DNA of 63,700 nucleotides, the filler included, from Calcarisporiella thermophila CBS 279.70 (taxonomy: Eukaryota > Fungi > Calcarisporiellomycota): the NCBI RefSeq assembly GCF_041956535.1. It is 11 parts of 10 records of this genome, joined end to end, with 100 filler letters (N's around TTAATTAATTAA, not from the genome) between each part and the next. Parts side by side here need not be neighbours in the genome. Positions count along the whole stretch, not along the records: positions 2,173 to 16,994 come from NW_027192193.1; 10 more parts are not named here. One strand, written 5' to 3'. Made by a program: the position numbers and the translations under genes. The notes below the pieces were generated by a model that had not been told where the DNA came from, did not search any database, and worked only from the letters and a program-made list of their open reading frames with translations. Shown piece by piece: positions 2,173-51,280 of this stretch (positions are counted from its first letter, which is position 1; every line of letters begins with the position of its first letter).

Positions 2173-2192
2173 CAACAATGGGTCCGGGTGGT

Positions 2193-3125
2193 CTAGTCTA
2201 TCTCTTCCGAGAGAAGCTCGAACTGTACCACGAAGAAGATGATTTTGCCGTCCCTAGTTTTGCACACATAACGCAAGGGCTGCGCCGAAAAACAAAAAAA
2301 AAAAAGAAGAGTGTGTCAGAACATGGAAAGGCAGCACAAAGAGCTCTGTGGACCACTCACCTGCCCGTCCCAGTACCCAAGCACGTTCACCGAGAATCCA
2401 GGCAACCTTATTGCGGCAGAATTGAAGTCCACGTAGGCGTTGAAGAAGTCGAACTGGACCTCTTGATCGGGCCCAAGCACCACCTTCTTGGCCTTCTCCG
2501 AATCGGAGAAGTATTTGCGGCGAGTCGAGACATCCATCGGCGTCCTTGGGGAGCCGCGTGCGCTGAGGCTGGAGGTATCTTCGGTGATGCGCTCCCCATT
2601 GGGGGAGGGCCAAGGACTCAGCTCCAGCTCCCCTTCCACCGACTTGGGGCTATTTCTCTTGTTAGAGGCATCCGAGCTATCGTCGTCCTTCGAGGATACG
2701 TTTTGTATGCGCAGGGTATTGACGGAACACAACAGGGGCGAGAAAGCCCATGGGCGTTCGGAATAGATGTCGGCCTCGAATCCAGGATCGAACCATCGTG
2801 CAAATTTCAAAGCAATTCCGGCACCAGGAGGAAGTCTGAGCGGAGTATCGAACTCATTGCCAAACAGAATCTCACTGGCAACCCATTCTCGCTTCCATCG
2901 CAGCTGGGCTTGGATGGAGTAGCAGTCGCTATTGCCATCGAAGTAGGGCGAGGTGTTAAGGAGGGTGGGGGCCGTGCCATTGAAGTCGCGGATTCGAACG
3001 CAAAGACGCAAGGTCAGGTGTGGAGTATCTATGAGGAGGGGATTGGCATCGTCATTAGGGCTAATGGGAATGAGTTGCGAGGTGTCAGGTCCGGCAGAGA
3101 CGCGGAGCTTTAGGTTGCCATTCAT
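2193..3125 (-). CDS. DUF1769 (UPF0590) family protein, 2 exons (intron 2280-2360)
   Basis: LRVSAGP, VRIRDF, ILFGNEFD, FDPG...PWAFSPL; splicing restores YWDGQ|PLRYVCK. Confidence 0.85.
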
Positions 3126-3570
3126 GGTGTATCGGTAGCTTACTGCTGGGCTTTGGCTCTATGGAATTGGTTCGATGAATGTGGAGAGAAGAGTGAGCAA
3201 ATAATGCGATTCGGATTCAAGCCCTCAAATTTAATTTCGATTGTAAAGGAGCGGAAGAGCGCCATGATTAGAGAGGGTCCTAGACCAGAATGGTGTCCAA
3301 TGGACAGCCCCCAATTTACTATCCAGAACGATCTTATCCAGGTAATAGACGAATTCTTGATAAACCGAGCTTAAGAAAAAAATAACAATAACCACACACC
3401 CATATCCTTGATAACTACATGAAAAAAAAAAAGAAAATGAACAAAGTAAAGAATAAAGTCGCCACCCCCAAGAGCGGAGAAAGAAGTAGAATGGTAGAAT
3501 TAGATCAGGCTAATCATGAATAAACAAAAAAAATAGGAGGTTTTCGTTTGAAAATTTCCAGCTTCTATCT

Positions 3571-4294
<724 letters not shown>

Positions 4295-4347
4295 TTATGC
4301 TCAATATCCAATCACACTCAAATGTGCCAGTCTCAATGGGACGAGGT

Positions 4348-5283
4348 TTATTGAATAAGTGAAGAGTTAAGGGCAAGAGCAAAAGTGTACAGTCTAGAGT
4401 CGATGCGTATAAGGGAGGAATAGGTGCGTTGGAACTCTGTAATTTTGGGTAGAATGGGTTAGAAGGATGCGGCCAACCGGGGGGTGCAATGAAAATACCA
4501 TGAATGACGTCTAGCAAGTCGTTCATGGGCACCTCCACCCGCTGCAGGCTCCATTCATCCGCCTCCAACAGTGGAACTGGGTTCAGGTTCTCGGGAAGGG
4601 TGATATCAATCTAGCGTTGTGAGGAGGATTAGAAAAACGCGGGGGAACATCGAATTAGCGGGGCTCATTTTACCGTCATTTTGACAAAACATGAACACGA
4701 GTCAGACATGCCTGGCTCGTAAGGCACGGGTTCGGAGATGGAAACGACCTCCCCCGTATAGCCAGTCTCCTCCTTAAGCTCACGACACGCTGCTTCTGCA
4801 GGATTCTCGCCTGGGTCAATCAAGCCTTTCACAGCGTTATTATTTTTTCGAAGTTAATTTAACCCCTATCAATACTAATGCAATCGGGATGGCTAAACAA
4901 ACCAGATGGGAATTCTAGAGTGTAGGCCAAGAGGGCAGGACGATATTGCAATACTAATACGCATCTAGGTGAACAATTCGGAGACAGCAGGATGGCGAGG
5001 ATGTCCACACCTAGAGGCCAAAATGTTAATGGTATCGATGGATAGAGAAAACAATAGGGAAATCCAAACCATCGACCATCCCTCCTACCCGAATTTTTTC
5101 ATCCCTCTTGCGACGACATACCTCCCATCTTCTTAACTGTGCGGCCTGACCATCGTGCGCGGGCAACATATAACTTGATTCCTCTAGCATGAGCCAGGCG
5201 CCTTTCCCCAAGATTTTGGAAGAGATTTGATCTAGGGCTTGAAGAGGAATATGAGGAGGAAGTTTGGAATGCGTTGGGGTCAT
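4348..5283 (-). CDS. Nudix hydrolase, ADP-ribose pyrophosphatase (Ysa1/NUDT5)-like, multi-exon
   Basis: Spliced VLVLQYRPAL...LEFPSG|LIDPGENPAEAACRELKEETGY (Nudix box); C-terminal IDSRLYTFA. Confidence 0.85.
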
Positions 5284-6296
5284 GTTGGGATATTTAAGAG
5301 AACAAAGCAAGGGGAGATTTGCTTTTAAGGGGGGGAGAAAAGAGGGACACATGGATCCTAAAAATTGGTAATGTGAGTGTGACTTGCTTTTCATAAATTA
5401 AAGCAAACAGTCACCTTAATAAGAGAGCAGTACTTAAATGCGCAGGGAAGAGATCTGTAGTAGGAAAACACTTATACCCAATAAACTTTGGAATACGATA
5501 TAACATATAATAGAGCAGATACAAGTATTCAGCAAGGCAACGGGAGGGATTTAGAGAAGAAGCGAGATATGGGATATTTTTATGCCATAAGGCCCGAAAT
5601 AGCAGTGTCAGGCGAGATAGCTCCCCATATGACCAAGAGGGTGATCTAGATTGAAGACAGCCGTTCGCTCACTATAGTGCTTTGCTCTGACTTGCAAGTT
5701 GCGCGGATGTATTCACGAAATAGCATGCCACCCCGGTGCTGCCAGTTTCCAACGCGAGACTAGCTCAGAGTTGAACTCCTAGTGTTGTCCTTTCGTAGCA
5801 AGCGGGTATGTAGCTCGTGCTGTAAAAGTAACCCGATTATTTATGCCAGTCGATACAGCGGACTGGGGCCCTCTTCCATCGAAAGGTGTGGCTTAAGCTG
5901 GGCCAAGAAACGCGATAGCGGCAATACAGACGTGGCGGGTCCAGCTTGAGTCTCTGGGCTTTCGGCCGTGGCTGTTGAAGACAAACTCGTGCAAGGCCGT
6001 CGCGAAGGTTGGCGCGGATATGCTTTGGTTGTAGGAAATAAGCCGGGCGCGCAAAAACTGCGTTGCCGCTGATGGGACCAAACAAGGCCCAAACATGCAT
6101 ACGCATGAATGCAAACCGTGTAATCGCAAATGAATGGAAATCCTCACCCCCACGAACCTTATTGCATTCAGCGCACGAGAACAAGAAACACGCTGTCCGC
6201 CGCAGCTCCCGTGGTTCTCTCACAAAAGCCCACGGCGGCTACAACCTTGTTTCCCTGTTTTCTCTCCCCCTCTCTCCCCCCCTTTCGCCTCCATAG

Positions 6297-9200
6297 GATG
6301 AACTAGATAGGACATGTGTTGGTCTGCCTACAATGATCCGCTTTCTTGTTGATCGGGCGCAAACCAAGCGCGAATTGCGATTTCGTAAGTATTTTGCGGA
6401 AAATAAGCAGTATCAAATACAACAGTGGGAGCAGCAGCAACTACAGTCTTCGAACTATGAAGAGCTCCCAGCTATGCTACCCGTCTCCGCGGACAACTCT
6501 CGTTCCGGTGAATCGTTATCAGAAAATTGGCAGACCATTCATAATGACGAGAGATCGGTAGGCAATCCAGGCACTAATGAGCGGACAGCACAAAATGCTA
6601 TTGCGCAAAAACCACAATCTCTACCCTCACTGTCCTCTGCGCCCCAACGACAGGGTTCAATACAGCACCAGGCGCAACAATCCGTAAAATTTCAAGAGCG
6701 ATCCAATTCCCTTCAGAACCAGGCACGACCAGCTCGCAATAGCCTTGCGCAGGGAAATGGTAGTTATTCGAATGATCGGTGACTAGGATCATATCTTGAG
6801 CTTAGGCTTTTCTTTCTAGGCCTCGCCGAACCCCTTTCCGCCCTTTCCTATCAGGAGAATACATTTCAACGTGTCGACTTCATCGGACGAACCAGCGTCT
6901 CTACTATGGAGAGCCCTTCTCACGCCCCAGCCTTGGCTACTGATCCTTTGCCCACTCCTGCCCTTGCGCAACCTATGTCTGTGCCGTCGAATGGCTCTCT
7001 TTCAGCTTCATTTGGCCCCGGCACGCATCCTGGTAAGGATGCGCTTGGAGCATTCCACCCGTCAATCACCCCTCCACCACTCTTACCCCCCATGTACGGC
7101 TCCATTCCTCCACTTCCTCCCGTGATCTCTCCCATGGGAGCAACGGGGATAGCGCCTCTAGCTGCATCGGATTTTGACTTTGATGAAAAGTCGCCCTCAC
7201 CCAAGCCTCCTACTTCATCGGAAACTGCCTCCCGAACAAAGGCTCCGTTAACGAATAGCAGCAGCTCCACCATCTCGACCCCCTCCGTTCAACACAACTC
7301 CGTATCCCTGGAGGCCTATTTGCCGTCTTACGATTCTATGTCAACGGACAGGAGAAATTCCAAGCATCTAGCCGTGGCGTCCTCCCTTCCTCTGCCACCT
7401 CCTTTCTTCTACCTCTACCCATCTCTCCCTAGTTCCTCTCTTCTAATTGAACAGGCCGATAACAATGGGTCGAGTTCAAAGCTGCAGCACCAAGAGCTAA
7501 AAGTGCCCCCGCCCCCGCCCCACTTCTTTATGGGACACTATATATCCGGAGCAAACTATGGCTCGGCATCAGGTGAAAGTGAAGCCACGCGATCCAACCC
7601 GAATCTCACCAATATTGAATCAACCGAATATCAAGCCTCGCGAAGCGCTTCCAATCTGGACATAAGAGAGACAGGAGTTGGTCCCCAAAGTAACTAAAAA
7701 CCTTCTTTTTTATAATAATAATGGCGTGGGCTTCATTGACTCATTCTATTTCCCAGCTTCCACCCACCGCCCCACCAAGAGCCTAAGCCGTAGAAGAGAA
7801 GTGTTCAATGGCCGCAACACCCCTATTTCTGAACGTGCCCGTCGTGCTCTTGGTGGCCATAGTTCCAGATCACAGCCGCAAAATCAGGCACCACTACAAG
7901 TTCTTACGCCGCACCGTGTTTTGAATGGTCACAGTGCTGGGGAAGAAAATCTCGAGTCTTCGGAGGTGTCCGAAAATGAGGACGCCCCGGTGACGCCGCG
8001 TGCCTCCACATTTTCCAACTCCAAGCCCGACAGTGGATACTCTAGCAAGTCACGAGAGTCCTTTACAGACGCTCAAAGCCGAGATTCCACCCATGCAATG
8101 GCACACGGTGCGGCTGTTGCAACAGAGCATTCGCCAGCAGACAATACGCAGCCGTGGTCAGCATCGAAATCTCACCATATGAAGGACGAGCTTGCACAGC
8201 TGCTTCGTATGCAAATAAAGTTGCTGAAACTTCAGCGCGAGGAGTTTTTCACCCAGGAATTGCAACATCGCCGCCGAGAGCGGGAGATTCTTGAGCAACT
8301 AGCCCGGGGACAGGAGGCAATCAATCGTGTCTTGATAAAACGGGGGGCTTATTTCCCCGACCCTATGAGGACTGATGAGGACATAAGAGAGACCGGAAAG
8401 AGAGAAGGGAGAGGCGGGTTGAAGCACCGGCGATCAACCCCCGCTTTTGTTCCCTCCCGGAGTAGAGAGGGTTTCGATTCCGCATCCCCGCTTTCCACCC
8501 CTGTAAGAAGAGGCCGCGACTTGTGGCCGAGAGATTTGGCGGGGGAGAAGAAGGAGCTTGAGGGTGAAGATGGGAGAGAAAATCCACAGGGTATTCATTC
8601 CAAGAAGTATCGAAGTATGAAAGCCGAGGAGCTGAGAGAAGTCTTGAGAATTTTGAGGAGTAGAAAAGATGAGGATGAGACGGAGATGGGGACGGAGACT
8701 CTAGAGGACGAACTGGGCGCAGTGGGAGGAGAGACGGTCGGGGTGGATACGCGGGACGAGAAAGAGACCACGTATAGAATCTCTAGAGAACATGATGAAG
8801 GTGATGGTGAAGGTGAAGGGGAAGATGAGGAGGAGGATGAAGGCGAGGAGGACGAAGATGATGAGGAGGATGAGGATGAATTGGTCTTGGCCGAAATATA
8901 CGATCGATACTCTTTAGACGACTCTCGCTACAACGGCTTCGACGATTATCTCTATTATCCAGAGTACTATCTGCCACCCCACCACTTGTATTATCCTCCC
9001 ACCCCGTTCGCTAGGCACTACCGTTATCCTCGGCATAGGATGCCTAGAGGGATGAACCGAATTGTTCGATCCCCGTACATCCGTAGGGGTCGGTCGAGGC
9101 GGAGGCGATTCTTGGACGAAAATGCGGGATATAGAGAGGAAGGGGGATTCGAAGAAAAATACACTCAGGTTAGGAAAGCGGTCAAAAACATGAGGGTTGA

Positions 9201-9297
9201 TGCGCGCGAAGTTACGAACGGTCCCGCGTATAGGGACGATGATGGCGATAAACCCAACAAGCATCAAAACGAGGAGGAACTACGGCCCTCAATTTAG
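6297..9297 (+). CDS. Large low-complexity protein (Gln/Pro/Ser-rich, coiled coil, acidic tract); multi-exon, 5' end uncertain
   Basis: Consecutive ORFs 6333-6782, 6906-7697 and 7678-9297 separated by intron-like pyrimidine/AG segments; no domain recognised. Confidence 0.6.
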
Positions 9298-9655
9298 TTT
9301 CTAGAGAGAACTCCATGCATCCATATCCTCTATATATCCATTGAATTGTAATTTTACTTTATGTCTTGTCGCATTTATTGGCGAGGGGGGGGTAGCTATT
9401 TTTATTATCACATGGTTTTTTACCACCACATCTATCTTGGTGGCACTTGCTTGCACATCGTTTTTTATCGTGTCACATATTTATTTTAACTATTTTCCGG
9501 AGCAGCTTTGAGTGCTTTATCATTTTGTAACATGATGTATTATGAACTTCAAATGGATATCCGTTCCATTCATTTAATTCCTTGACCTTTCTGACAAACA
9601 AAACTGGGAGAGTCTGCTAGCCTTTACCGGAGGATACTGAGGGACACTTGCGGAA

Positions 9656-10557
9656 TCACCGCCAAAAGGTTAGCCAGTGACTGAACCGTGCACGTTGAAA
9701 TACCAATTCCGTAGGATGTGACGAATGATAGAGCTCATTATTGATGTAGCCAATATAATGCAGACTAAATGCAAGAGAGTAGTCATGGGTGAGAGCGAAT
9801 CGAACTGTTTGGAGAGAGATAGCCTCACCCGCCAAATCCGCCGATATAGTACACTCCTCGTGTTCGCAGGCGGTAAAAGTGAAAATCGTGGAATGGGGCG
9901 CCTTCCTTGTCATCGGGGGGCATCCACCACTTTGTCTCTGGGTGAGCCCGCTGCATACATTTTTTGGCAGCCGGAATCTTCCAATGCAAGATTAGGATCA
10001 AAGGTGGGAGGGGTTATTTTAGAAAATAGAGAAGAAGCATATCCCATACCTCATCAGCCGAGAGAGGCTCCAACTCGCCGTACAGTGTTAGGCGAGCCTT
10101 GGCCACAGGATAAGAGCCGGGTCTCAAATCTCGCACGGTAAGCGAGACCTTGGGCATTGCTTTTGCATTGCGGGTATTCATCTTTGCCAACCTCAGTCGC
10201 TAATTAGTTTTGAATTTCGTAATATCGGTTCACAGAACTGCTCTACCTGAATATCAGAAAGCAGCATAATGGGATCACCGGTTGAGGTGGGGCAAGCATC
10301 GCTGAAGTAATCCACCGAGCCAAACGGATACCCTACGCTCCATCGTGCGATCAGCACTTCTCTCCTGCTGGCTCTTAACATCGCTTACCTTCAAATTCGG
10401 TTCCATTTTTCATAACGCTCATCAAGGTCCCAATCGTGGTATCGCGCACAAGTTCTCGTGCTAGCCGAGCTGCATCTCTTTCTGTCTCTTCTGCAACCAC
10501 AGAATTGGGGTGAATGCAGATCAGAAAAATGAGAAGAAATCCAAGTAGAAAATTCAT
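9656..10557 (-). CDS. Secreted CREG / pyridoxamine-5'-phosphate-oxidase-like split-barrel protein, multi-exon
   Basis: Signal peptide; AARLARELV..IGTLMSV, YPFGSVDY, ARLTLYG, FHDFHFYRL, YYIGGFGG. Confidence 0.8.
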
Positions 10558-11032
10558 TTTCAGGGTTGTAAGAACTGAAAATGAATTCAAAAACGCCTTA
10601 CATAAAGGACTGTTTGCCACTCAAAAATCATTCGATATTGGAAGAAATTGAACACAAATTTGGCCAAACTTGAAGGGAATAGTTAAATGGTTCATAAAAA
10701 GCCCATATACTGCACAGAGTGCTAAATAACGATAGTGGTAGAGACAGGCATTTGATATATATAGAAGTGGTCAAGATAATGGTCGTGATCTTTTTTTTAA
10801 ATAAGAGTTCTTTATTGAATAAGTCATATTTGGATAGACCACTACGACAAAATCGCCCAAATTTTTCTCGATATGCACAAAGGAAATGGTGGGGGATTTA
10901 TTAAATATATTTATCTTATTTATAAAGATGCTGCACCATCGATCCATATTGATAAAATACATATCCCGACAAAAAATATTGTGGGAAATCCCGGTAATAT
11001 AATTGGATTATTGTCAGGTGAATCAAGTCACA

Positions 11033-11181
11033 TTTTTTGTAAATAAGTAGGCATCAGTTAAAAATACGTTTTATTTCTCTCGAACTGTAGAAAAGAAAAA
11101 ATAAAATACATAAAATATGAAAATTTAATTAATATCCTACATTTCCCACATACGTCAGCAAAAATAAATTACTATTACAAC
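11033..11181 (+). repeat. Left arm of a long imperfect inverted repeat
   Basis: Shares blocks AAGTAG, AGTTAAAAAT, TTTATTTCT, TACATAAAATA, TATCCTACAT, CGTCAG, AAAATAAA, ACTATT, in order, with the reverse complement of 13869-14030. Confidence 0.85.
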
Positions 11182-11266
11182 GCAACTCTCTACCCAGCCA
11201 GTTTGCTTAAACTGAAACACCCCGCCAACCCCACCCCAAGTCATATTCCACTCCCCACCCCGATCT

Positions 11267-13867
11267 ATGCCTAAAGCACGTCCATCCACACATACGAGTG
11301 ATGCAGGCACGACCAGACGCGCCGAACGCGGTGCAATTCCGCGCACTCGCCGGCACAGGCCCTACACAAGGCGGATGATGGAAAGTCGGTGCGACCAATG
11401 CGACCCATCTCAGAGCGCCGAGACATCAAATGGAGGGCAACAAAATCATGAACCCATCATCACAGAGTCCCTCAGGACGTGGTGGAGAGAAAAGATGTAT
11501 CCGGTCATGGAACTTGTGGCAGATTATATGCAGCGCACTGGTTATGTCCCACAGCTTAGTACCGGTCGCCAAGTCGCTGGTGGCAGGAAGAGGGAGCAAC
11601 GCGATTTCTCGTGGGCAGACAAATTGCGGACGCGTGCTTATGATACTCAAGGCATTAGCAACGGTGAACGGCGTGTGGATGATAGCGGCAGCCCAACCAC
11701 GCATCTCTGTAACGTTGGGGTGCATGAGTGCCAGGGACACGGTCTGAGTGCTGTGGCTCCTGCTGCCCATTCGTGTTTTCCGCGCCACGTCCCAGCAGGC
11801 CTCTGGGTAGAGCCTATTGAGGCATTTAGATCCGAACCAGAACCTCTGATTGAGTACCGTGACACCCTGCACTTGTGCTTTCGTCTCTCTGCACATCAAC
11901 CGGTCATGAGAGTTGATCTGGCCTGTGGTCTGGGGTCCTCTAGTCTCATGTATGGGCAGCCATGCTCTCACGGCGGTGGAATAAACCGCTTGCATTGTTA
12001 TCGCAGGATGACAGCAGCGAGCTTTGTGAATGCTGTGGCACGCGGGGAACTGCCAAGAGCGTACATTACAGCGCATAACTCTGCCTTGTGGTTGAACATT
12101 GTGGCCGCAGTGGTGACCGCAGCAGGAGGCGCTATGTTCGTTCAAAGCCCATATTCTTGCTCGGCTTGTGCTACTGCGGAAGCATGTGTTGCTGGCGCGA
12201 GTGTGGTATTTGATCCACCACCAGTCCCGCATGCGGTCGGAGAGACAGTTCAAGCTAACCCAATCCCTTTCTGGGAGGCGGTGGCAGGCCCGGACGGATT
12301 TGCAGACCCAGTGTGCGTCTTGGCGATGGACCAGCTCGATGTGACACATGGCCTCCTTCATTCACTCGATTGGGAATGGGGTACAGACAATGGCGACAAG
12401 GAGCTTGCTTGGAGTCTTGTATCGGGAGAGACACTTTTTAGGATACCATCTTTCTATCTTACCCATCACTGTGGCCTGGGTGGATGGCAGGTTGCTAGAG
12501 TGGCTAAATCAAGCCTGGGACTGTTTTCTCTCTTCGCAACGCTAGTGGCCAGCCGTTACGGGGCAGGGAATTTTGCCCATATTGGCATGGCTGGAAGAGA
12601 CGTCTGGCAAGTTCTGAGAGACACTGAGTTGGCCATAGGGTTTGCGCGGATGGTGACTCTCGCGCCCCAGGTTAGTAAGCACGGGACACTAGGCGTCATA
12701 ATAGGTGAAAGGCATGGGGTTGGGCTTCAGCGTATGGAGTTGGCTGCATGCTTGGCACTGGTGAGATTGGTGCCCTTGGTACTGGGGGCTTTTCGACAGG
12801 ATAGTGACTTCACAGCGCTGCGCATGTGGACAACCCTGGCCACTATGGGGTCGAATGTACAGGCTGCCGTGCGCGAGTTGCAGGAACTGGGGTTGACTGC
12901 AGCGCTACTGTATGCGGACAGCTTAGCCGAGGCAGATTTTGACAAGCGGGTGGCCCTCTTCCGGAAATTGGGCTACTCTGTGCCGGTTCACCCTAGCACC
13001 CTAACATTGTATAAAAGAAATGCACTGGCTTACAAGCTGTTTCACTCAGGATTAGCTGTGAATCTGAGAGGGCAGGTGCGAAGCTATTGGGCGGCATTAG
13101 CCTCATTTTCAAGCAACTGGGGCAAGGTTGAAGGACTGCAATTATTCGATGAGGTGTGGGATGAGGTCAATACGGCGGAAGATGATGCTGAGAAGTCGGT
13201 ACTATGGTGGTCACAGGCCAGCCTGCACGTGGAACCGGGGGAAGGGGACATGCTACGGGTATGGTGGAGCGTCCCTGAGGGCACAGCTCCTGTGGTTCAC
13301 CAGCTGCATCCACAGGAGGTGCTGGTGCCTAGTGGCCAGGTCGCCGGTCTGATTGCGGGCAAGTCTCACAGTACACGGGCTAGAGGGGCGAGGTACATGC
13401 CTGCATATGTTGTAGGGACTGCAGGCACACTCGGCAGGGCTTCCTTGCAAGTGGATGCACGAGGGTACGCTCCGGGGAATGCGCTTGAAGGGGACTGTAT
13501 GTGGATGTTGGGCGTGGTCGCAACTCCAGGGACTGGGGGATGGATGTCTGACACATGCATTCCAGACGTGGTGACTCACTGCGTGGATTGCCATCCGCAG
13601 AGAGGGGAAGCCCGCTCAATCATGGACGAGCGTCGCTGTCCGACATGCATCCTCCCCACCTGGGAAGCTGAAGATGGAGTACACGGTCCAGTGGCTCTGG
13701 TGCATGATATGCATCCTGCCTATGCTTTAATTGGCATTGATGCTTGTAGTAGAGGGCACATGGCATATTTCCTCTCCTCTAGGGACATAGGCTACCAACG
13801 GGCTCAGGCGTGTGCTGCGCGTGCGGGGGTGCTGGTGGACCCTCTTGCGACAGTGAGAGTGGGTTAG
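11267..13867 (+). CDS. Intronless 866-aa hypothetical protein, Cys/His/Trp/Gly/Ala-rich; possibly RNA-virus-derived
   Basis: 2.6-kb uninterrupted ORF, G-rich versus AT-rich flanks; CxxC pairs (CDQC, CSAC, CVDC, CPTC); no family securely recognised. Confidence 0.8.
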   Translation: MPKARPSTHTSDAGTTRRAERGAIPRTRRHRPYTRRMMESRCDQCDPSQSAETSNGGQQNHEPIITESLRTWWREKMYPVMELVADYMQRTGYVPQLSTGRQVAGGRKREQRDFSWADKLRTRAYDTQGISNGERRVDDSGSPTTHLCNVGVHECQGHGLSAVAPAAHSCFPRHVPAGLWVEPIEAFRSEPEPLIEYRDTLHLCFRLSAHQPVMRVDLACGLGSSSLMYGQPCSHGGGINRLHCYRRMTAASFVNAVARGELPRAYITAHNSALWLNIVAAVVTAAGGAMFVQSPYSCSACATAEACVAGASVVFDPPPVPHAVGETVQANPIPFWEAVAGPDGFADPVCVLAMDQLDVTHGLLHSLDWEWGTDNGDKELAWSLVSGETLFRIPSFYLTHHCGLGGWQVARVAKSSLGLFSLFATLVASRYGAGNFAHIGMAGRDVWQVLRDTELAIGFARMVTLAPQVSKHGTLGVIIGERHGVGLQRMELAACLALVRLVPLVLGAFRQDSDFTALRMWTTLATMGSNVQAAVRELQELGLTAALLYADSLAEADFDKRVALFRKLGYSVPVHPSTLTLYKRNALAYKLFHSGLAVNLRGQVRSYWAALASFSSNWGKVEGLQLFDEVWDEVNTAEDDAEKSVLWWSQASLHVEPGEGDMLRVWWSVPEGTAPVVHQLHPQEVLVPSGQVAGLIAGKSHSTRARGARYMPAYVVGTAGTLGRASLQVDARGYAPGNALEGDCMWMLGVVATPGTGGWMSDTCIPDVVTHCVDCHPQRGEARSIMDERRCPTCILPTWEAEDGVHGPVALVHDMHPAYALIGIDACSRGHMAYFLSSRDIGYQRAQACAARAGVLVDPLATVRVG

Positions 13868-13868
13868 G

Positions 13869-14030
13869 GTTGTGAATAGTGGTTTATTTTTTCTGACGAG
13901 CTGTCGAATATGTAGGATAATTATGAAATTTCGTATTTTATGTACCTATTTTTTCTAAACTCATCCATAGTTTCACTTCGCAAGAAATAAACGCATTTTT
14001 AACTAGTAGACACTACTTGTTTATAAAAAA
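13869..14030 (-). repeat. Right arm of the long imperfect inverted repeat
   Basis: Begins directly after the ORF stop codon; reverse-complement match to 11033-11181. Confidence 0.85.
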
Positions 14031-14039
14031 GAAACCGTC

Positions 14040-15240
14040 GTTTTCATGATCTTGCATAGCCTTGTGACGTAGCTGCCTTCCTCTGTTTTCACCTTTATCT
14101 CGAGTTAGCATTTCGTGCAGCAATGATTCGTTGGAAGTAGGCCGTTGATTTCTCTCCTTGTTCAGTCCATCTTGCTCTGCTTCGATTACGCAAGGTTTCT
14201 TGTTTTCTCTTCAAGATATGACTCTGTTCTGTCTGCAGCTCCGTCCGTTCTGCTTGTAGTCCTTCTGAGATATTCGTCCCAGTTTTTCCTATCTCTCTTA
14301 GGCGGGTTTGAATCTCCTTGAGTCTATTTCGGTGCCTCTTTGCCCGCTTTTCACTAAATTCCTGTGTGCATGCCTGAAAATTTAGTTTAGTTTCTTCCCA
14401 GAATTTGATCGGATCAATGTTGAATATAGGGTCCTGGATGCGTATTCTCCAGAGGGACTGAATCTGACAAAGGTTTAGCTTCTATTAGGTCGGTGTTTAA
14501 TTTCCACCATCCCGGTCCGCGCTTATTCTGGGTACTTTGATTGATCATAAGGAGTAGGCCTAAGTGGTCCGATGAGGATCTCCCTTCGAATAGGAGTGGG
14601 GTTATGGTTTCCAAGACCTGGGATTTTCTAGGAGGGTTGGTGTGGTATACGCGTGGTCTATACGGGTTTTCACTATTCCTGAGCCTGTGACCGTCTCATA
14701 AGTGAATTGATATGCTCGGGAGGAGAAGTATCTATGGATGTCGTACAGGTCTAAATCCCCTAGTGACTCTTCCAGCGACTTCCATGAAGTTCTTTGTCCG
14801 TTCGACCCTGGGAGGGGTGGCCAGTGGTTTAAGTTGGAGCTTTGGTAGGTATTGAAATCTCCTACCATAACTTGGCGTGCCTTTTGGAGTTGTTTGAAAC
14901 TGGTTTGATAGAAGTTGTTTCGGTCTTGAGGGTTCGCAGGTACATACACTGTTGTAATGTGTAGAGGATCTTGGTTCTGGGTGGTTTTGTTGATGATTTT
15001 TGCTTGGATAATTCTCCTGTCCTCTGACCTAAATGTCTCTTCTAGGCTGATGTGTTCCGAGGTTGAAAGAATGGCATTGTGTTTTGACCATAGGGCGGGG
15101 TAGCACCAATGTTGGGACCACTATTGGTAATCTTTGGAGGCTGTGTGTGTTTCTTGGAGACAGATAATGTTGACATCGAGTGATTTTAACCATAGGAAAA
15201 TATATGATCGCTTTTGGATGGAATTTAGTCCGCGGTGCAT
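14040..15240 (-). pseudogene. LINE ORF2 fragment: APE endonuclease, with stops and frameshifts
   Basis: ICLQETH, VYVPA, VGDFN, RIDHAY, SDH, GPGWWKLN motifs. Confidence 0.88.
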
Positions 15241-15289
15241 GACGGTTTTTTATTTCCTCTAAGGGCGCGGGAACTTGCGTCCTGTGGTT

Positions 15290-15488
15290 TATTTAATATA
15301 TATTACAAATGTAAGATGTGCTTTCGGACAGGCTTATTAAGTACTAGAAGAACATGGGATATAGTTTAAAGAGTTCCGTGCTTGGAAATGTTGGATTAAG
15401 AGTTCTTGGCTTCCTCGAAATCGAATGCTACTTCTTGGCTGTCATCGATCCGGATTAACGAGCACTTTCCCCATTTTTGCTTGAACCC
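15290..15488 (-). mobile_element. Very short LINE 3' end remnant
   Basis: Reads FKQKWGKCSLIRIDDSQEVAFDF..*, similar to other LINE ORF2 C-termini in the window. Confidence 0.5.
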
Positions 15489-15505
15489 TTCATTTCGACG
15501 GGGTC

Positions 15506-16025
15506 TTTTTTTTTTGGGATTTATGGATCTTTATTGAAAAGTATCCTTTTAAGTTAGTATAGTGCCTTGTCAGGAGAATGCTCTCAAAAAGAAAAAAAAA
15601 ATCAGGAGAAATACATGTAAGTAGTGGTTGATCGTATGAATACCATCCTATTTTTCAAGGACGGTATTATACAAGAGAGGAAAAGAATATAGACAACAAA
15701 AAAAAGGGAAAAATTGGAATGCGGGTGGTAGGGTATTCAGCATGGTCGTATTGGAGCTAAGTGTTTTGGTTGAAGGATATTTCGTCTCCTTGGACTTGTA
15801 TCCAACTTCCCTTACACCAAAGCTCTTGGAAATCTTCTTTCTTATCCTTTATGGACGCTGATCACCATTTGGATCTCACGATTTTTTGCATTTCGTGACC
15901 TAGTTGTTCAGCGAGCGCTATTTCGCTTGGTTGGGCGTTATCCATTATTATCGATAATCTTGATCGATATATTATCCAAATTGCTGCATCATGGACCGTT
16001 GACACTACTTCCCGTTGGTAGCCCA
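15506..16025 (-). mobile_element. 5'-truncated LINE (family B) with poly(A) tail and 17-bp TSD TTCATTTCGACGGGGTC
   Basis: TSD copies at 15489-15505 and 16026-16042; closely similar to 48985-49510. Confidence 0.88.
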
Positions 16026-16046
16026 TTCATTTCGACGGGGTCAGCA

Positions 16047-16994
16047 TTTTTTTTGATCAATGCCGAGTCTTTATTGTATAGGAAGACTCTAAAATACAAT
16101 TGTTACATTATTATAAGCAATAAAGTGAAAGGGAAGCCAAAGTTAAAGCTTTGTGTGATATCGTAGATCGAAATGATATGTTGGTCATATCAACTTTCAG
16201 CTCAAATAGGTAAGGGAATGGTGAAACTCAACTAACTGTGGATATCAAAGGATAGCATGAGAAGTGGGGTGGGGAGTAAACAAATGGAAGCAGAGGACAG
16301 GAAGGGGATAAGGTAAGGATTACTGCGTTATCCCAGTATCAGTGCCGCTCCGATCGCTCCTTCTCTAACCGCACCCAGCTTGCACCATCTTCTTCGAAAC
16401 TGTTCGATTTGCCGGTTTTTTCGTGCTCGCATTAGTTCGGCTCCTATCACTTCCTCAATATCTAGTTTGGCCCGGTTGATGATTATTTCGGGTGAAGCTC
16501 GGGTGCTTTCGAAATGAAAGGCGATCCGATCTCGGTGGATTTGCCACAGCACCGAGTCAAAAGTAATTCGGGCTACGTGTCTCGCTGTTCTCGAGGATTC
16601 CATGAGGTCTCCAAGTATGAGGTTGCGAGCAGTCAGCACCGGAGTATTCTGGGGGCCTGTGGTGGTGACGATGCACCTCTCCGCCCATTGCCATACTGGT
16701 GTGAGTTCAGGACATTCGAAGAAAGTGTGCCGAATTGTGTCTCTCGAGGCGTTACATCGGGTGCACTTCGGATCGTGGCCAGGAAATGTCGAGTTAGTGA
16801 TCACTCGTTCCACAAGAATCCGCCAGCGTAGCGCACGGTGTTTTGGGAGGGTGGGTCGTTTGTGGACGGAAGTCCAGATTTTCTTCCAATCCTCGGGTGT
16901 AGATCCAGCCTCTGGCCAGGATTGAGGCACCAATATGTTCGGCTCTAGAGAGCCGTTGCGCCGGAAGTGCCGTCCTTGTCGGGTGGAGTATTCC
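16047..16994 (-). mobile_element. LINE (family A) 3' end with zf-RVT CCHC region
   Basis: CTRC..DTIRHTFFEC motif; tail ATTGATC(A)n; homologous to 46775-48309. Confidence 0.9.
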
Positions 16995-17159
16995 NNNNNN
17001 NNNNNNNNNNNNNNNNNNNNNNNNNNNNNNNNNNNNNNTTAATTAATTAANNNNNNNNNNNNNNNNNNNNNNNNNNNNNNNNNNNNNNNNNNNNTGACAA
17101 TGTAAATAAACTAAAAACCATTTATGTTATTTTGAGATTATGTACTGTCTATAGATTTG

Positions 17160-21597: not shown

Positions 21598-22675
21598 CTC
21601 TTTTTGTTGACAAATTTTTAAGTAAATATGCAGCTTTTATAATTTTTTGCGGGATGATGAATTTTTTGATTTACAATAAGTATACTATATTAGGATCCAT
21701 ATTTTTTGAATAGCCGCTGAATATAAGAATTTAATAAAAGGTTTGTTAAAATTACGAGAAAGAAATTTAAACCTTCAGCATTTGATGTTGGTTCTCTGTC
21801 GGTGTGTTTAGAATTGAGAATATACATTATAGTAACTTTATAGTGTAAAATAATAGATTTATCATATACAGCGACCTAGAAGAAACATTTGTGAGGTTAA
21901 TGATTTGGATATGGACTGAGTAGCATAAATACATATATAACCGCATATATAATATACTTGTCTTGTGATCAAGATTTTTGCATTTTAATAATAGAGAAAC
22001 CATGAATATCGCAGATTTTACTCATTGATACCTTATCGCTGTTTTAAGTTTTGCCTGCTAGACCGTCCTAGTTGCATATTCATGGAGTTTGGCCTCGACT
22101 ATTGGTCGACCATGTATAGATTATGACACCTGACATACTTATAAAACCTTTCGAACCGCTCGAAATTAACGTTCCGCACAAAGTGATTTTATTTCCATTT
22201 TAACATACTAACAAACCAATTTGAGGTTTGATACCAAGTGCAATTTGCATTTCGCGAGATCTTTTTTGCTGTAAGCGCACTAAAATGTCAAATCTAGAAC
22301 TATTAAACTATTTAAATAAATAATTTATTATATCGCGGTCAAAATATCTACAAAATTTCAACTACCCATTGTGTATTATTATCTCTTTTTATTTGGCCCA
22401 ATTGGAGTAAAAAATTGAACTTAAATCCTACCAAAAAGTAAGTTCTTTTCTTAGAAAATATTGGGAAACAAAGATGCTTTATAAGCCAAGTAAAAATTGT
22501 TATAGGAAAGGAATTTATATAATTAGAATTAATTAATTGATTCTGAAACTTTTTTCACTATTCTATATTCAATAAACCTTATAAGTATGAATGTTAAAAT
22601 ATTTCGCACATTTCTATGCAAAAATCAAATTTCACAATACCATTTGAAAACTATTAAAAAATATTAAAAGCAATC

Positions 22676-22748
22676 CGCCCATGGCAGGACTCGAACCTGC
22701 AACCTTTAGATCCGAAGTCTAACGCGCTATCCATTGCGCCACATGAGC
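22676..22748 (-). tRNA. tRNA-Arg(TCG)
   Basis: GCTCATG...TTAGA-CTTCGGA-TCTAA...GGTTCGAGTCC...CATGGGCG cloverleaf. Confidence 0.95.
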
Positions 22749-23528: not shown

Positions 23529-24782
23529 ATGAAGCAAATCTCGGAAACAGTCAAGTCGAGGATAATCTCATTATGTAATGAAGGTTTATCTAGCAGAGTG
23601 ATCTCGCGTCAACTTGGGATAAGTTACCACACAGTCAATAAATATCGTAGAATATGCGCTCCAGAATCTTCTAAACCAGCTTCCGGTCGCCCACGTGTTT
23701 TTACTGAGAGACAAGAGAAAGTCCTCGTACGAAATTTCAAGGCTGGGATATATGAAGATATACCAGACGCGAAGAAAAAACTTAAGGAAGGTTACAATGT
23801 CGATTTGTCCTTGTCATCTGTAAGGAACGTACTAAAGCGAAGCCGAATGAGCTCGAGATCGTGCGGAAAAAAGCCGCTTTTGAAAGATAGCCATAGGAAT
23901 GCTCGACTAGCCTTTGCGCGTAAATATCGAAGCTGGAGTTTCGTTGAATGGAAGCGTGTTGTATGGTCAGATGAAAGCATTTTTCGAGTATTCGGCACAG
24001 GCAGAAGAAGATACTACTGGATAGCTCCGGGCGATCCTATTCGCGAGCACCATTTCAAAAATACAGTCAAGCACGGCGATGGGTCAGTTAACATGTGGGC
24101 ATCCATTACTTCCAAAGGAGTTGGCTTCATGTGCCAAATAGATAAGAGATTAAGTGCAGAGCTCTACCAAAATATTTTAGGAGATGAGTTAATGAGAACC
24201 CTAGACTGGTATGAACTGGACAAGGATCAAATCATTTTCAACATGATAATGATCCTAAACATACCGCGCGTAGCACAGTAGAATGGCTAGCAAACCATAA
24301 TGTTAACGTACTAGAATGGCCAGCTCAGTCTCCTGATTTAAATCCTATCGAGTTCATGTGGGATGAGTTAGACAGAAGAATCCAAGATCGTGAGCAGCAG
24401 CCGACTAATGCTGAGGCATTTTGAGATATACTGCAGGAAGAGTGGGAGAAGATAGAGCCAGAATTATGTGCCAAAATTATAGGGACAATGCCACAGCGTC
24501 TGGAAGCAGTGATAAAAGCAAAGGGTGGTCATACAAGATTTTGAAATATTTTTATTAATAAAAAAACATGAATTCTATGGGGGTACCGGAGTTTGAAAAA
24601 TTGACTTTTATGGATAACTTTCAAGAAAAAGGGTTTTTTGCAAGGGCATATAGATGGAATGATCGGGCAAGGGTGTTTATAGTTGCTGTATGTAACGCAA
24701 CTTGTTGTATCTTCTTTTGGAGATATAAGATGAAAAATCAGATTATTAAAAAAACATGGGCTCAATTTTTAAGTCCAGCGTA
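23529..24782 (+). mobile_element. Tc1/mariner element; transposase 23529-24544 disrupted by a frameshift near 24237 and an internal stop; right TIR ends at 24780 + TA
   Basis: [33 protein letters not shown] motifs; TIR matches 36686-36711. Confidence 0.92.
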
Positions 24783-25374: not shown

Positions 25375-26317
25375 TTAAAAAGACATTTTGTAGGGAGATG
25401 TCATACAGCCCCACATCATTATGCTTCCTCCTCCATGCTTCACCACTGGTTGTATATGGCGCTCTTGCAGTGGTTCATCACGCCTCTTCCAGTACCACTC
25501 TCGCCTTTCGTCACCAAAAATGCGGATTTGGCATTCATCTGAAAAGATGACGTGACTCCAATCTTCAATGGTCCAATCCTTGTATTTTCTTGCGAACTGC
25601 AATCTCCTGAGGCGGTGCTTTTTTGTAAGTAGAGGACTTTTTCTTCGAACTCTTGCAACAAAATAATTGCGATGGAGTGTCCTACGAACGGTGTTCTCGG
25701 AAATACTCTGCTTCGCCGTCTCGTTCCAAAGTTCTTGCGCCTTGACTGCGTTCTTGCATTCTCCTGTCGCCATTCTTCGGCACAATCTGTTTTCATCACG
25801 GCGGGATAACTTGCGCGGGCGACCCATATTTTCTCTTGACGAATTTGTTGGATCATTTTCTTCATCCTGACGTATATTTGATACGGTAGTTCTGCTGGTT
25901 CCTTCATGAGCAGCAATTTCACGTGTGGAATAACCTTCTTCGAGTAGGACCGATATACGAGCGCGTTTAACAGGAGTAGTGCGAGGCATAATGCTTATAT
26001 TATAAGATAATAAAAAGCGAGGCTAACAGAATATATGGGATAATTTTCGGGCGATGGATGCTTTTTGTTGTTGAATTACAAGAGTATTAATCCACACTGG
26101 ACTAAACGAGCAAATATGTCCCAAAAAAATTTCGGTTTAAAACGCATTTACCCTTGAAAAGTTACAAACATAGCACTCCTTGATGTGCATGGAATGAGAG
26201 CTGATGTTATAAGGTTTTGCAAAATATATAATATTTATTTGAAGTTTATCCTTATAGGAAGTATGATTCGTAATATGAAAAAAGGGGGGTGTCAAGAAAC
26301 TTTTGAGAGGCACTTTA
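25375..26317 (-). mobile_element. Tc1/mariner element, 3'-truncated transposase (25375-25989) with 5' TIR
   Basis: GRPRK, FSDEC, VKHGGGSIMMWGCM; terminus TAAAGTGCCTCTCAAAAGTTT..GACACCCC. Confidence 0.88.
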
Positions 26318-27042: not shown

Positions 27043-30000
27043 TTAGCCCCACACATCTTCATTGTATCGACCTGCTTCTACCAAATGATTCATATATTCA
27101 ACTGCTTCTGATCTAGACATCCCTGATACTTGCTCTTTCAGTGCAATAAATGCTCTTCGCACGTCCTTTGCCATGCTGTCCGCAGAGCCACAGACATAGA
27201 CTGAAGCATTGCGATTCTCCAGCAAATCAATAATGAGTTCGGCTTCCCGAAGCAAGCAATGTTGGACATATCGAATCGACTGTCCCGTGCGAGAATAGGT
27301 GACAAATAGCTTAGCCAGAGTCCCATCTTCAACAAAAGAATTTATCTCATTTTTATAAATGAAATCATGCTCTGGATTACGGCAACCGAAAAATAGATAA
27401 GCGTCCGATTTTCCTCCCTTTTCTATGCTTTTTAATCCTTTGGCACGTCGCTCTTGAAGAAAGCCTCGGAAAGGACTCAGTCCAGTCCCAGCGCATATGA
27501 AAATTTGAGGCACAATCTCATCATTGGGTAAATGGAAGTTTGACTTGCATTGTTTAATCTGAGCATGGATTTTTGTTCCAGGCTCTAGGCACTGTAGGTA
27601 CCTACTGGCAAGTCCGTAGTAGACTTTTTCACCATCAACACCCCCGCGATCTTGAACTACTCCAACCGTCTGAGGAAAACAAATCATATGAATAAGTAAT
27701 GCGTGCTCTTAGAAATTATACGCATGATTGCTTACAATTGAAGGGTTGTGGGGATGCACGGAGGGACCACTGCTAATAGAGTATTTTCTCGGCATTACAG
27801 CATTCATTGAGCTTAGAAACTCTTTAAAGCTAAATTCTTTTACCCCAAAAGATCTTAAAATATTTACGGTAGTGCGATGTGAGGATACAAAATCTTTAAG
27901 CCAAACTGATTCTTTGCCGGACTGAAGGGCTGTTTTCAACTGCTCTGCTAGTTCGGGACAGATCTTTTCCAAGTTCTTTGCTATTACCGCCAGAGAATAG
28001 CGGGTAGGGGGTCCAGTAAGATCTGCGTAATAAGTGAGCGCATTGCGAATAGTACATGGTCCTTTGATTGTGGCCGCAATAGATCTTGGAGACAAGTTGA
28101 CAATATTGAGATCTTTAATTTCGAAAACGGAGTCCAGAACAAATCCAAGGTTACTCGCAACCTCTTCTACCAAATTAACGTCATTGATTGGATATATCTG
28201 TAGGACGAAAAAAAAAAAACCGTTCAATATTCAGTGTTTTGGTCTCTCGAAGAATGTTCAATGTCGCATATCAGCTCCCAACTTAAGCTGGAAGCTCAGC
28301 AAGTTAGATAAGGATATATCAAGTTAGTAATCCTACCTCAAGATGATCGCCAGCATTGTATAAGGGTAGTTTATGCTCCGTGATGGGGAATTCGAATTCA
28401 ATATGTCTTGTGCTTCGGCCGCTCTTTTCGGAATATTGGAGTTCAATATTGGACTTGATTGTCACTTGAGATCCTTGTTGGTTCTTGTTTTCCTTGGCCT
28501 CGACTATTTTGTACTTTTGATGCAGTGGCCAAAATTGCAAAATGAAATCGTCGCACGGGTTTGCCATGAGATCGTGACTGATAATTATATCTGCATTTTT
28601 TCCTGAAGGATCTTGCCCATAACGCTCCATCAAGGCGATCCAAAATTGCGCCGACCATTCGCTGAAATCTCCATCTATGTCCTCATTTGCATCACCCACT
28701 CCGGCTGGCAACAATCTTTCACCACCAAGAAACTCAAAACCTTGGTCGATCTTTTTGGGGAATGCTATCGTAAAACTACTTAATTAATTCACATGCAATT
28801 ATACATATTCTGATCTTCTCACATGAACGTACCTTGGAAAGTTGAGTCCCATTGTCGGTTACCGCAACCAAATACTGCATAGAGGATACCATCAAGCACG
28901 GGATTATCGTTCGTATTATTTTCGATTTTGGAAGATAACCACTCATCGAATTGTGTAGCATTATCGGGTGGATTGCCATTGTACGTTGCGGTGGTGATAA
29001 CCACAATTTCAGTTAGCTTGACATCACGCACATTCTTTGGTTGGCTTTCATTTTGGCCGAGTTGCACAGCTGTCCCTCCTTTTACGACCTTCCAATTATC
29101 GAGTTCATCAACGATAATTTCCCTGAACCCAAGGTTTTTCGCTTGGCTCGCAAGCTTACAGGCATACTCCTCAGAAGTATTTGTTTGGGTTCCATACAAG
29201 AAGGTGATACTCGGCAATGGAAATTTCGCTGGCTCCACCGACATACTCGCACACTGTTCTTTGAACTCTGTCTCCTTTTTATTGCTTGAATCTGTGCCAT
29301 TGGGGTAGGATGATTGGTGGAGTTCGACAGGAAACACTTTGACGAAAAAGTCGACTGGACTGTGGCCCGTGGTTATTTGGTAAGTGATCTTCTTGGAAGG
29401 GTCATCCATTGCGAAACGAAACTTTGAAAGCATCATTATCAACGCAAGCTTGCCCTCTTGGAGCGCAAAATATCTGTGTAAATATACAATGCAATTAATC
29501 CGTAAAGCCTATTCACTTCAAGATATCCACCATACCGGCCAAGGCATCCTCGAGGGCCGTCACTGAATGGTATCCATGCCTGATGATGTCTTTTTTTATT
29601 TGCCTCAGGATCGGCGAAACGAGAAGGATCAAAAATTTCGGGTTTTTCCCAAACATTCGGATCTTTATGGGTAGCTTGTATATTCACCCTGATCAATTGC
29701 CCGGCTTTGATTTGGTACTCATTAGCCCGTGCCTTGATGGTACAATCTTTTTTGCATACTTTCGTGACTGAAATGAACGGCGGGTGGTAGCGGAGAGATT
29801 CCTGAATGACCATATCGAGGTAAGTGCACATTTTAACTTGTTCAGGGGTAGGAATCTCGTCAGGCTTAATGCCTGCATTTGCTAACTCGATGCTTATTCT
29901 TTGAGAGATATCAGGATGGCGGCATAACTCTAGGATGGTCCAGCTAAGAAAACCGCTAGTAGTTTCGTAACCTATCATGTCCGAAATCCCATATTAGTGG

Positions 30001-30923
30001 GCACTTAAAAACAATTGGGCATAAAATCTAAGTATAATACCTCCATCAATCAGAGCAACCATGTTGTCTCTAATATGTTTTTCGTTAAGATGCTCTCCTT
30101 CTTTGGTGGAGGTTTTCAGCATATAATCCAATATGTCTTTCTCGTTATCCTCTGTGCGAGGATTGGCTCTGCGCTCCCTGAGAAAATCCTCAATTGTATT
30201 TCTTACAACGGCAAGTTCATGTTTAAACCGAATATTGGCGTCGGTTTGCAACCATTTCATCCAGCTGACGGATTGGTTACGCTTTCTCGCCATTGCTTGG
30301 ACATAGTGAAATGCATGGAGAAATGGGTGTGCTATATTTTTCGGGCCTTTAAGCAAGTTGAACTTGTGGCTAAATCCAATTCGACCAATAGCTTCCATTG
30401 TAAGGGCCATCATATAACGCTTGATGTCGAGTTCCTCTCCAGATTTCTGAAAGGTGTCTAAAATTTGGATGAGTTCTTGTACGCACTCCCCCATTTGAAA
30501 GCGGTAGGCCTTAATGGCTTTTGCAGAGAACGCTGGAACCAAGATCTTGTGTGGCAGAATCCAATCGTGATCGTTTGTTGCTGTTGTGACTACACTTCGA
30601 CCATGGAAAAGAGCGACATCTTGCGTAAAGCCAACCATTTCCTTTGTGAAATATTCGTCATCTTTGCAAACATCCTTAATAGCCTCAGGATCACATATGT
30701 CGATGTATTCGTAGCCGCCAAAGCTGACCCGCATTACTGGGCCATATTTGTCATGAAGCCGGCGAAAATTTGCGATGAAATCTGGAAGAAGATCTGGAGC
30801 ATTTCCTACCAATAGACTTCACATAGATAAGCCTAATTATCCTTTACAGAATTTTTTTCCTATCGGTGGAATGATATACCGGGGCTTGGGACCAGGAATT
30901 TTGTCGCTCTCGAAATACGTCAT
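27043..30923 (-). CDS. Self-sufficient cytochrome P450-NADPH reductase fusion (CYP505/CYP102-like architecture), multi-exon
   Basis: ESLR, FDPSRF, PFSDGPRGCLG heme motif; flavodoxin LYGTQTNTSE, TATYNG; RKYSISS, GTGLSPFRGF, FGCR, C-terminal DVWG. Confidence 0.93.
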
Positions 30924-42716: not shown

Positions 42717-42974
42717 TGTTGGATTTTAATAAGAATATATTGATAAAAAGGAAAGAAGACAGGCAGAAGGGATAACACAACTCAAACACACCAAAGAACT
42801 CAAGAGAGATAGATCACATCCTATATATATGATAGAATAGGATAGGAGATAAAAGAGATAAGGCGTAATAATGATGGTGAGATGCCTGCTTGTATAAATA
42901 TGATATCAATCATCGTAACACAAAAATTATCTAGTCTATTTAAGGCTTAGGTCACGCCTGGTCGTCCTCCAACA
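42717..42974 (-). repeat. Solo LTR (long TGTTGG type)
   Basis: TGTTGGA...TCCAACA; homologous to 45091-45343 and 48671-48914. Confidence 0.85.
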
Positions 42975-44444: not shown

Positions 44445-44618
44445 TGTTGGAGGATGATCAGGCGTGACTGATAATCTGAAATTGTCAGTATTTTAATTTA
44501 AACCTGATTTTTACTTGTTTTTGTATAAACTATATTACGATTTCTTGTTATTCTTGAAGAGTTCAGCTATTTTGTCTTTTTTTTTCGTGAAGATCAATAT
44601 ACACATTAAAATCCAACA
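44445..44618 (+). repeat. Solo LTR, short TGTTGG type, following a TGTCAGGA LTR stub (44389-44444)
   Basis: Homology to 23270-23453; stub homologous to the start of the 35943 LTR. Confidence 0.8.
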
Positions 44619-48670: not shown

Positions 48671-48914
48671 TGTTGGAACTGATTAAGAGTATATTAATAA
48701 AAGGAAAGAAGACAGATAGAAGGGATAGCATAATAACACACACCACTAGAGAACTCAAAAGAGAGAAAGCACATCCTATATATATGATAGAATAGGAGAT
48801 GATGACTAATAATGATGATAAGATACTTGCTTATACATATTTGTATAAGTATGAAATAACCGTCGTAACACAACAACTATTCAGACTTAGATCATGCCTA
48901 GTCGTTCTCCAACA
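48671..48914 (-). repeat. Solo LTR with 5-bp TSD TGATC
   Basis: TG...CA termini; TGATC on both sides. Confidence 0.92.
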
Positions 48915-50501: not shown

Positions 50502-51280
50502 TGTTACGTTTATTAGTTTTAGATTAGAGATCTTATCTAGATATTGTACTCATTGAAGAATTAAAGCAGATGATTGACAACGGTAGAGTGCGGCCTTCGA
50601 AGAGTCCGTGGGCAGCGCCATTGAACCCAGTGAAGAAGGCAGATGAAGCCACCAGGATGGCAGTCGATTATCGCCGTCTAAACGAAGTAACGAAAAAGGA
50701 TCGTTATCCCTTACCAAACCCGCAGGATTATTTTTCTCACTTGAGGGGTGCGAAGGTATTCTCGACGATAGACCTTGCATCCGGGTTTTGGCAGATTGAA
50801 CTCGAGGAAGCAGATAAAGAGAAGACAGCGTTCACCTCACCGCTAGGCCTATATGAGTTCAACGTTATGCCATTCGGGCTGACGAATGACCCAGCAACTT
50901 TCCAACGCATGATTGACGCCGTATGCACTGGTATGAAATGGAATTTTTGCATGCCTTACATGGATGATCTACTTGTGTTCTCAGCAACGGTCGAGGAGCA
51001 TATAAAGCATTTGACTAGGGTGTTTGAAGCCCTGGTCAGTGGAGGTCTCAAACTGAAAAGGAGCAAATGCAAGTTCTTTCGTAAGGAAGTCAAGTACTTA
51101 GGGCACGTTATTGGAGAAAACGGCATAAGTACAGATCCGGAGAAGACAAAAGCGATCACGGAATTTCTAGAGCCAACAAATCTCACGGAAGTGCGACGAT
51201 CTTATGGGCTATTAAGCTACTATCGTAGATTTATCCGGAACTTTTCGCAATTGGTAAAGCCGTTAAGTGATCTGACGCGG
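50502..51280 (+). mobile_element. Internally deleted Ty3/Gypsy copy: LTR stub (50502-50550) fused to RT
   Basis: TGTTACGTTT LTR start; PSKSPWAAP, DYRRLN, DLASGFWQ, MPFGL, YMDD. Confidence 0.88.

Follow-up and report, generated by a model that had tools for sequence, protein, structure and literature searches.

Architecture of the cassette and its junctions

The window analysed here, i.e. the whole 63.7-kb stretch of Calcarisporiella thermophila DNA, harbors at positions 11033-14030 a real unit, namely two diverged inverted arms with one intact gene between them. This cassette of 2998 bp lies entirely within the gap-free piece 2173-16994, which is bordered by N-linkers on both sides. The ten linkers of the form N44-TTAATTAATTAA-N44 (2073-2172, 16995-17094 and eight more) account for the top, false repeat families of the repeat scan. 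The features of the locus are as follows.

10558-11032, no strand assigned: left flank, DNA upstream of a CREG-like host gene that lies on the minus strand and has its ATG near 10557
11033-11181: left inverted arm, AT-rich, starting with T6; a putative old terminal inverted repeat (TIR)
11070-11075, minus strand (outward-reading): AATAAA of the left arm, 31 nt inside the terminal A-run
11182-11266, plus strand: leader of 85 nt, C-rich, without a (CAA)3 run
11267-13867, plus strand: main ORF, 866 aa, intact single frame, one of a family of five proteins
11954-12220, plus strand: conserved domain (aa 230-318), a predicted beta-alpha-beta-alpha-beta unit
13691-13840, plus strand: possible degenerate second copy of the domain at the C-terminus, with the same predicted element order (hhalign probability 4%, E 0.01)
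13869-14030: right inverted arm, beginning right after the stop codon and ending in A6; it would form the 3' UTR
13986-13991, plus strand: AATAAA of the right arm as candidate polyadenylation signal, 33 nt upstream of the terminal A6
14031-15120, minus strand: right flank, 5' fragment of a LINE ORF2 from the endonuclease region, with three frame changes

This layout, with the arms at exactly 11033-11181 and 13869-14030, the ORF between them and a C-rich leader, agrees with a preliminary description of the locus. According to an ORF scan the cassette carries a single ORF, and the 2.6-kb frame is open over all 866 codons, intron-free as described before and with zero frame changes; its stop codon is a TAG two bases upstream of the right arm. 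The G-rich composition noted earlier is not distinctive: for 12001-14000 in the cassette, GC is 0.53-0.56 with a GC skew between +0.15 and +0.20, against 0.52 and +0.17 for a neighbouring host ORF in 8001-9000. On the opposite strand an antisense ORF of 311 aa (11426-12361, minus), its codons aligned in register with those of the main ORF, does not span the gene and has no match in Pfam. A telomere-like GGGTTAGGGTT at 13861-13871 overlaps both the stop codon of the ORF and the right arm at its inner end, and lacks a mirror in the left arm.

The arms measure 149 bp (left) and 162 bp (right) and align with 71.5% identity over 165 columns (E 2.9e-15, blastn in the 63.7-kb window), which by arithmetic corresponds to 118 identities, 28 mismatches and 19 gap columns and bears out the many substitutions and indels reported earlier. 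Their local alignment score is 153, including a weak extension beyond the arms, versus a mean of 36.7 (sd 6.7, maximum 75) for 1000 shuffles of the right region. Counted by hand, about 7 indel events separate the arms in about 310 bases, and the longest perfect stretch common to both is about 11 nt. If an RNA panhandle were maintained, an excess of transitions that create G-U pairs would be expected for one of the strands; in the well-aligned blocks the transitions are distributed 5:5 between the strands, a G-U bias is absent, and transversions as well as indels are found (by hand). The divergence of the arms thus looks like neutral drift of DNA repeats. When folded, neither the arms alone nor the left arm together with the leader (z +0.80) perform better than shuffles. 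Neither a third copy of an arm nor a second copy of the ORF is found in the 63.7-kb window, and one exact 24-base pattern of the arm has no match in the JGI metagenomes and IMG/VR. Since the AATAAA of the left arm is the mirror of that in the right arm, it does not constitute independent evidence. The 3' ends of LINEs in the window likewise contain AATAAA followed by A6-A10, and because the arm ends resemble them a retroposition route stays open.

On the right side, the LINE reading frame ends exactly at the outer T-run of the right arm. The LINE endonuclease is recognised by a Pfam match under the cut-off (E 6e-4), while the LINE frames after the endonuclease are presumed to be such from L1-type motifs. 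On the left side, no recognisable continuation of the LINE is found in the three minus frames of the flank. For the CREG-like gene beyond it, weak Pfam matches are spread over three different frames, consistent with introns and with the earlier statement that the host neighbours mostly carry them; this is the one host gene examined.

No target-site duplication was detected: the 10 bases to the right of the element find no match near its left end with up to 2 mismatches, other registers having been compared by eye, and a 16-mer of the left flank is not repeated in the window. The right-flank 10-mer agrees with one LINE target at 8/10 positions; two other LINE ends differ from it and the likeness was attributed to chance. 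A LINE insertion 1.5 kb from the cassette did produce a perfect 17-bp duplication (15489-15505 and 16026-16042); this LINE is 5'-truncated and sits directly behind the A-tail of another LINE. The cut LINE at the right arm, the unrelated left flank and the missing duplication together exclude a simple insertion at a single site. Either the unit has since lost or exchanged one of its flanks, or it became linked to LINE sequence upon arrival.

The encoded protein and its family

A phmmer search with the 866-aa protein against 1.84 billion representatives (E<=0.001) returns three matches, namely the protein itself and two further proteins of Calcarisporiella thermophila. Profile searches add another two proteins of this species (4/5152 and 4/7996 candidates passed, earlier matches included). 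The four relatives comprise 249-745 aa, are encoded on three contigs, are all annotated from the Mucoromycota fungus C. thermophila and share 25-35% identity with the 866-aa protein. The label 'orphan' given in the preliminary description is accordingly too strong, and the existence of four relatives identifies the ORF frame as a real coding frame. The longest relative (P0003, 745 aa) is colinear with the 866-aa protein up to the C-terminus at about 27% identity, whereas P0002, P0004 and P0007 are shorter and stop at or diverge beyond a shared domain. For the two pairs compared among these three, identities are 64% and 49%; the former value refers to P0004 and P0007 (242 columns), which lie nine gene numbers apart on one contig and form a local cluster. 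The family is thus dispersed and looks as if it were turning over.

In the libraries searched, the family is without a named member. The 866-aa protein matches no family in Pfam (E<=1) and none in either PHROGs or NCBIfam (E<=10), a result that covers known profiles, and it has no match in PADLOC and none among PDB sequences, a match to a receiver domain with an E-value of 0.44 having been rejected. In particular, no recognisable DDE, tyrosine-recombinase or HUH transposase domain is present in the ORF (Pfam, PHROGs, NCBIfam, PDB sequences), in agreement with the previous report of no transposase-type motif, and the cassette is devoid of reverse transcriptase, RNase H and tyrosine recombinase (ORF scan, Pfam). 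None of the three phmmer matches is viral, and the profile searches contribute only fungal proteins. Sequence matches to RdRp, capsid, P3 or P4 are likewise absent (Pfam, phmmer), the fold models being too poor for such a comparison. A tblastn search against phages and plasmids gave no match; protein-pattern matches in IMG/VR (30), JGI metagenomes (361) and GTDB genomes (56) yielded none that was confirmed; the ESM Atlas offered no usable match (best 0.86, unnamed clusters); and the one Rfam match is due to chance and lies outside the cassette.

All five proteins share an alpha/beta domain of about 90 aa bearing Cys and His residues. Gly230, Pro232, Cys233, Gly236, Gly238, His270, Trp275, Ser299 and Cys301 are invariant in 5/5 sequences, and His235 and Cys298 are present in 4/5. 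As judged from the Cys/His motif, the domain is predicted to be a likely metal binder. The alpha/beta unit of aa 230-318 is predicted with a pLDDT of 53-71, and the folding models (pLDDT 33.5 for the full length, 47.5 for the domain) are too poor to decide on a fold. With these low-confidence models, fold searches return only generic Rossmann-like alpha/beta matches (best Z 5.7 and 6.0), Foldseek gives no match with a meaningful TM-score, and the matches listed include no deaminase, transposase or viral capsid. An internal repeat comparable to the possible second domain copy is absent from P0007.

The arrangement TAH...CxxC recalls zinc-dependent deaminases of the CDA fold. This assignment is not supported, as the catalytic glutamate of the HxE...PCxxC motif is missing: two places after the histidine, the family has Ser or Asn, never Glu, in 5/5 proteins versus HAE in 3/3 E. 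coli deaminases. Comparison of the deaminases with the family by hhalign gives probabilities of 0.2% and 0.1%, the profiles being shallow. The N-terminus of the 866-aa protein is basic. Among the five proteins, three of which lack the C-terminal half, there is no invariant acidic residue.

Possible origins of the cassette

Indels are distributed unevenly over the locus, with about 7 events between the arms (hand count) and three frame changes in 1.1 kb of LINE sequence but none in the 2.6-kb ORF. Hence, either selection acts on the ORF, or the unit is young and its arms differed from the start. The cargo gene has probably been kept open by selection.

As a tentative explanation, falling somewhat short of probable, we favour an old, now immobile and non-autonomous DNA element with long TIRs, the cargo of which outlived the arms under selection. 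The arms would once have been near-identical terminal repeats recognised by a transposase encoded elsewhere in the genome. A promoter would come from the left arm, with the ATG 85 nt inside of it, and a 3' UTR with its poly(A) signal from the right arm, and thereby the gene could travel as a self-contained unit. Tc1-type TIR transposases are present in the genome, as seen from two truncated Tc1/mariner ORFs in the window (23529-24281 and 25375-25989, Pfam HTH_Tnp_Tc3_2). The present copy would have inserted into a LINE and lost one flank later on, either by end-anchored deletion or by recombination between two copies. Such a history would lead to the exact cut of the LINE, to a left flank of unrelated DNA and to the lack of a target-site duplication.

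A non-autonomous mobile cassette had already been proposed in the preliminary description. Its anatomy, the cut LINE frame and the dispersed, partly truncated family speak for this proposal, and mobility is what we infer from them. Relatives on three contigs, one of them colinear and three shorter, with pairs at 64% and 49% identity, correspond to the pattern of a family that is copied and decays as DNA. The arm lengths fall into the range of MULE TIRs and the ORF is hugged on both sides. On the other hand, a duplication is missing, the arms are less than 80% alike, and a second arm copy is absent from the window; moreover, T6/A6 ends with an inner AATAAA fit retroposition equally well, and no host parent gene was found.

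The closest functional parallel is provided by Pack-MULE and Pack-TYPE elements, in which long TIRs surround non-transposase cargo (PMC3310237, PMC6446971), as do the arms of 149 and 162 bp here. MULE TIRs are given as about 100-500 bp and can drive Pack-MULE cargo as promoters (PMC3310237), and MULEs and Pack-MULEs are described with an 8-11 bp target-site duplication outside the TIRs (PMC3310237, PMC6446971). Contrary to these, the cassette has no 8-11 bp duplication, its arms (71.5%) lie below the 80% similarity threshold used there for a MULE TIR library (PMC3310237), and it carries a single complete ORF of 866 aa from an unknown family instead of host gene fragments. The cassette would therefore work like a Pack-MULE and was nevertheless not filed as one, given the missing duplication and the similarity of the arms below threshold. 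In fungi, hAT-borne histone H3 copies of Dothideomycetes illustrate that a DNA transposon carries and amplifies a gene; there, the transposase is kept and the housekeeping cargo is inactivated by RIP, whereas the cassette has no transposase, an unknown cargo and an intact frame (PMC6710886). Among openly accessible papers found on cargo TIR elements, none concerns the present family as judged by title.

The genes Spok, within Enterprise, and wtf are selfish cargo of fungal mobile elements. Like the cassette gene they are lineage-restricted, multi-copy and fast-diverging genes linked to repeats, while a sequence match with the cassette cargo is absent. By analogy, the protein might persist through a selfish-cargo role of the poison/antidote or anti-silencing type, which we consider possible but rather unlikely. 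DIRS1-like elements have imperfect inverted ends that start with T's and cause no target-site duplication, both of which are also seen in the cassette; they differ from it in that the cassette is devoid of reverse transcriptase, RNase H and tyrosine recombinase.

If the tentative explanation as a long-TIR element is true, the locus represents a gene-carrying TIR cassette in Mucoromycota, the cargo of which is a complete protein of a family without a described member. With its cargo kept intact after the ends had decayed, it would provide one example of how lineage-specific genes of fungi originate and spread via mobile DNA, and the gene would be a candidate selfish or defence gene. In a broader version, to which we assign a rather low likelihood, the cassette would be one of several copies of an undescribed mobile unit of early-diverging fungi, i.e. 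either a TIR element whose Cys/His protein of 750-870 aa is a new mobility enzyme, or integrated segments, with complementary ends of 150 nt, of an RNA-virus lineage absent from all databases. An ORF that proves to encode a mobility protein would define a new element, and one that proves to be a relic of a virus would define a new virus lineage.

An unlikely alternative is a DNA copy of an unknown RNA-virus segment with naturally imperfect complementary ends, made by a LINE reverse transcriptase. In this scenario, reverse transcription would have begun at the A-tail of one of the strands before switching to LINE RNA, giving rise to a LINE-cassette chimera. The 5' part of the LINE does join the arm at a shared T-run, in the orientation that such a chimera predicts. 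The cassette is intronless, monocistronic and 3.0 kb long, in keeping with Chrysoviridae, whose segments are monocistronic and of 2.5-3.6 kbp (PMC5882088), and the relatives, being 25-35% identical, could stem from integration events of their own. Fungi are known to contain integrated genes of RNA viruses on which purifying selection acts (PMC2805616), and the cassette shares with these and with the Chrysoviridae (PMC5882088) an intronless, monocistronic unit of about 3 kb with a frame kept open. It differs from both in that no viral homology was found (0/3 phmmer matches among 1.84 billion representatives, only fungal proteins from profiles). Furthermore, chrysovirus segments possess a CAA reiteration of 30-50 nt in the 5' UTR and ends that are conserved between segments and not described as inverted repeats of 150 nt (PMC5882088), whereas the reiteration CAACAACAA is absent from the cassette and matches twice elsewhere in the window. 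The missing G-U strand bias and the short perfect match between the arms also count against a viral segment, as does the AT content of the arms, which equals that of host intergenic DNA. LINE insertions in this region give a 17-bp duplication, while the left-flank 16-mer is unrepeated in the window, though the LINE 5' end may lie past a gap. With non-viral phmmer matches, a leader without CAA reiteration and 5:5 transitions, the mycovirus-like segment and its panhandle suggested earlier receive no positive support. Among openly accessible papers, none was found on viral relics in Mucoromycota or early-diverging fungi.

A retrogene generated by copy-back is distinctly unlikely. Here, a copy-back step of reverse transcription would have given a processed copy of a host-family mRNA a second, inverted version of its 3' UTR and A-tail at the 5' end, the two versions then drifting apart while the ORF was kept. 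The right arm extends exactly from the stop codon to A6 with AATAAA inside, the same AATAAA plus A6-A10 anatomy occurs at LINE ends in the window, the gene is intronless, and such an event would account for the absence of both a transposase and further copies. However, the search for a parent gene of higher identity returned only the four distant relatives (closest 27-35%), a flanking duplication is missing, and copy-back of this kind by a LINE is our own proposal.

That the ORF itself encodes the protein which mobilises a TIR element of an undescribed class, with the shorter relatives as decayed copies, appears improbable. One ORF between long TIRs is the anatomy of an autonomous element, and the basic N-terminus, the Cys/His domain and the truncated, dispersed relatives would suit it. 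Against this stand the lack of any Pfam, NCBIfam, PHROG or PDB sequence match and of an acidic residue invariant across all five proteins, though three are without the C-terminal half. In addition, it would be unusual for a transposase to stay intact when its ends are 71% identical and a duplication is missing.

Quite improbable is that the ORF is simply a lineage-specific gene without introns that has come to lie between two independent, oppositely oriented insertions of a short repeat (a MITE or the truncated 3' end of a retro-element): the window is repeat-rich and lineage-specific genes are expected where an order is represented by one genome, but the arms are equal in extent, abut the ORF (2 and 85 nt) and have no further copy in 63.7 kb.

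Other sequences in the window

The window is rich in repeats. Two regions of Ty3/gypsy-type reverse transcriptase (50552-51280 and 51577-52305) are inverted relative to each other, 76% alike over 729 nt and 296 nt apart. Three related direct repeats (42746-42902, 45120-45343 and 48699-48914) are spaced by 2.4 and 3.6 kb; an ORF close to them (44535-45203) has no match in Pfam and, in our assumption, recalls the N-terminus of a DIRS-type reverse transcriptase. Two tRNA-like sequences (22667-22748 and 61403-61484) are 77% alike. ORFs at 27043-30734 on the minus strand are read by us as a cytochrome P450 with a flavodoxin/reductase region after it, presumably forming one fused P450-reductase gene.
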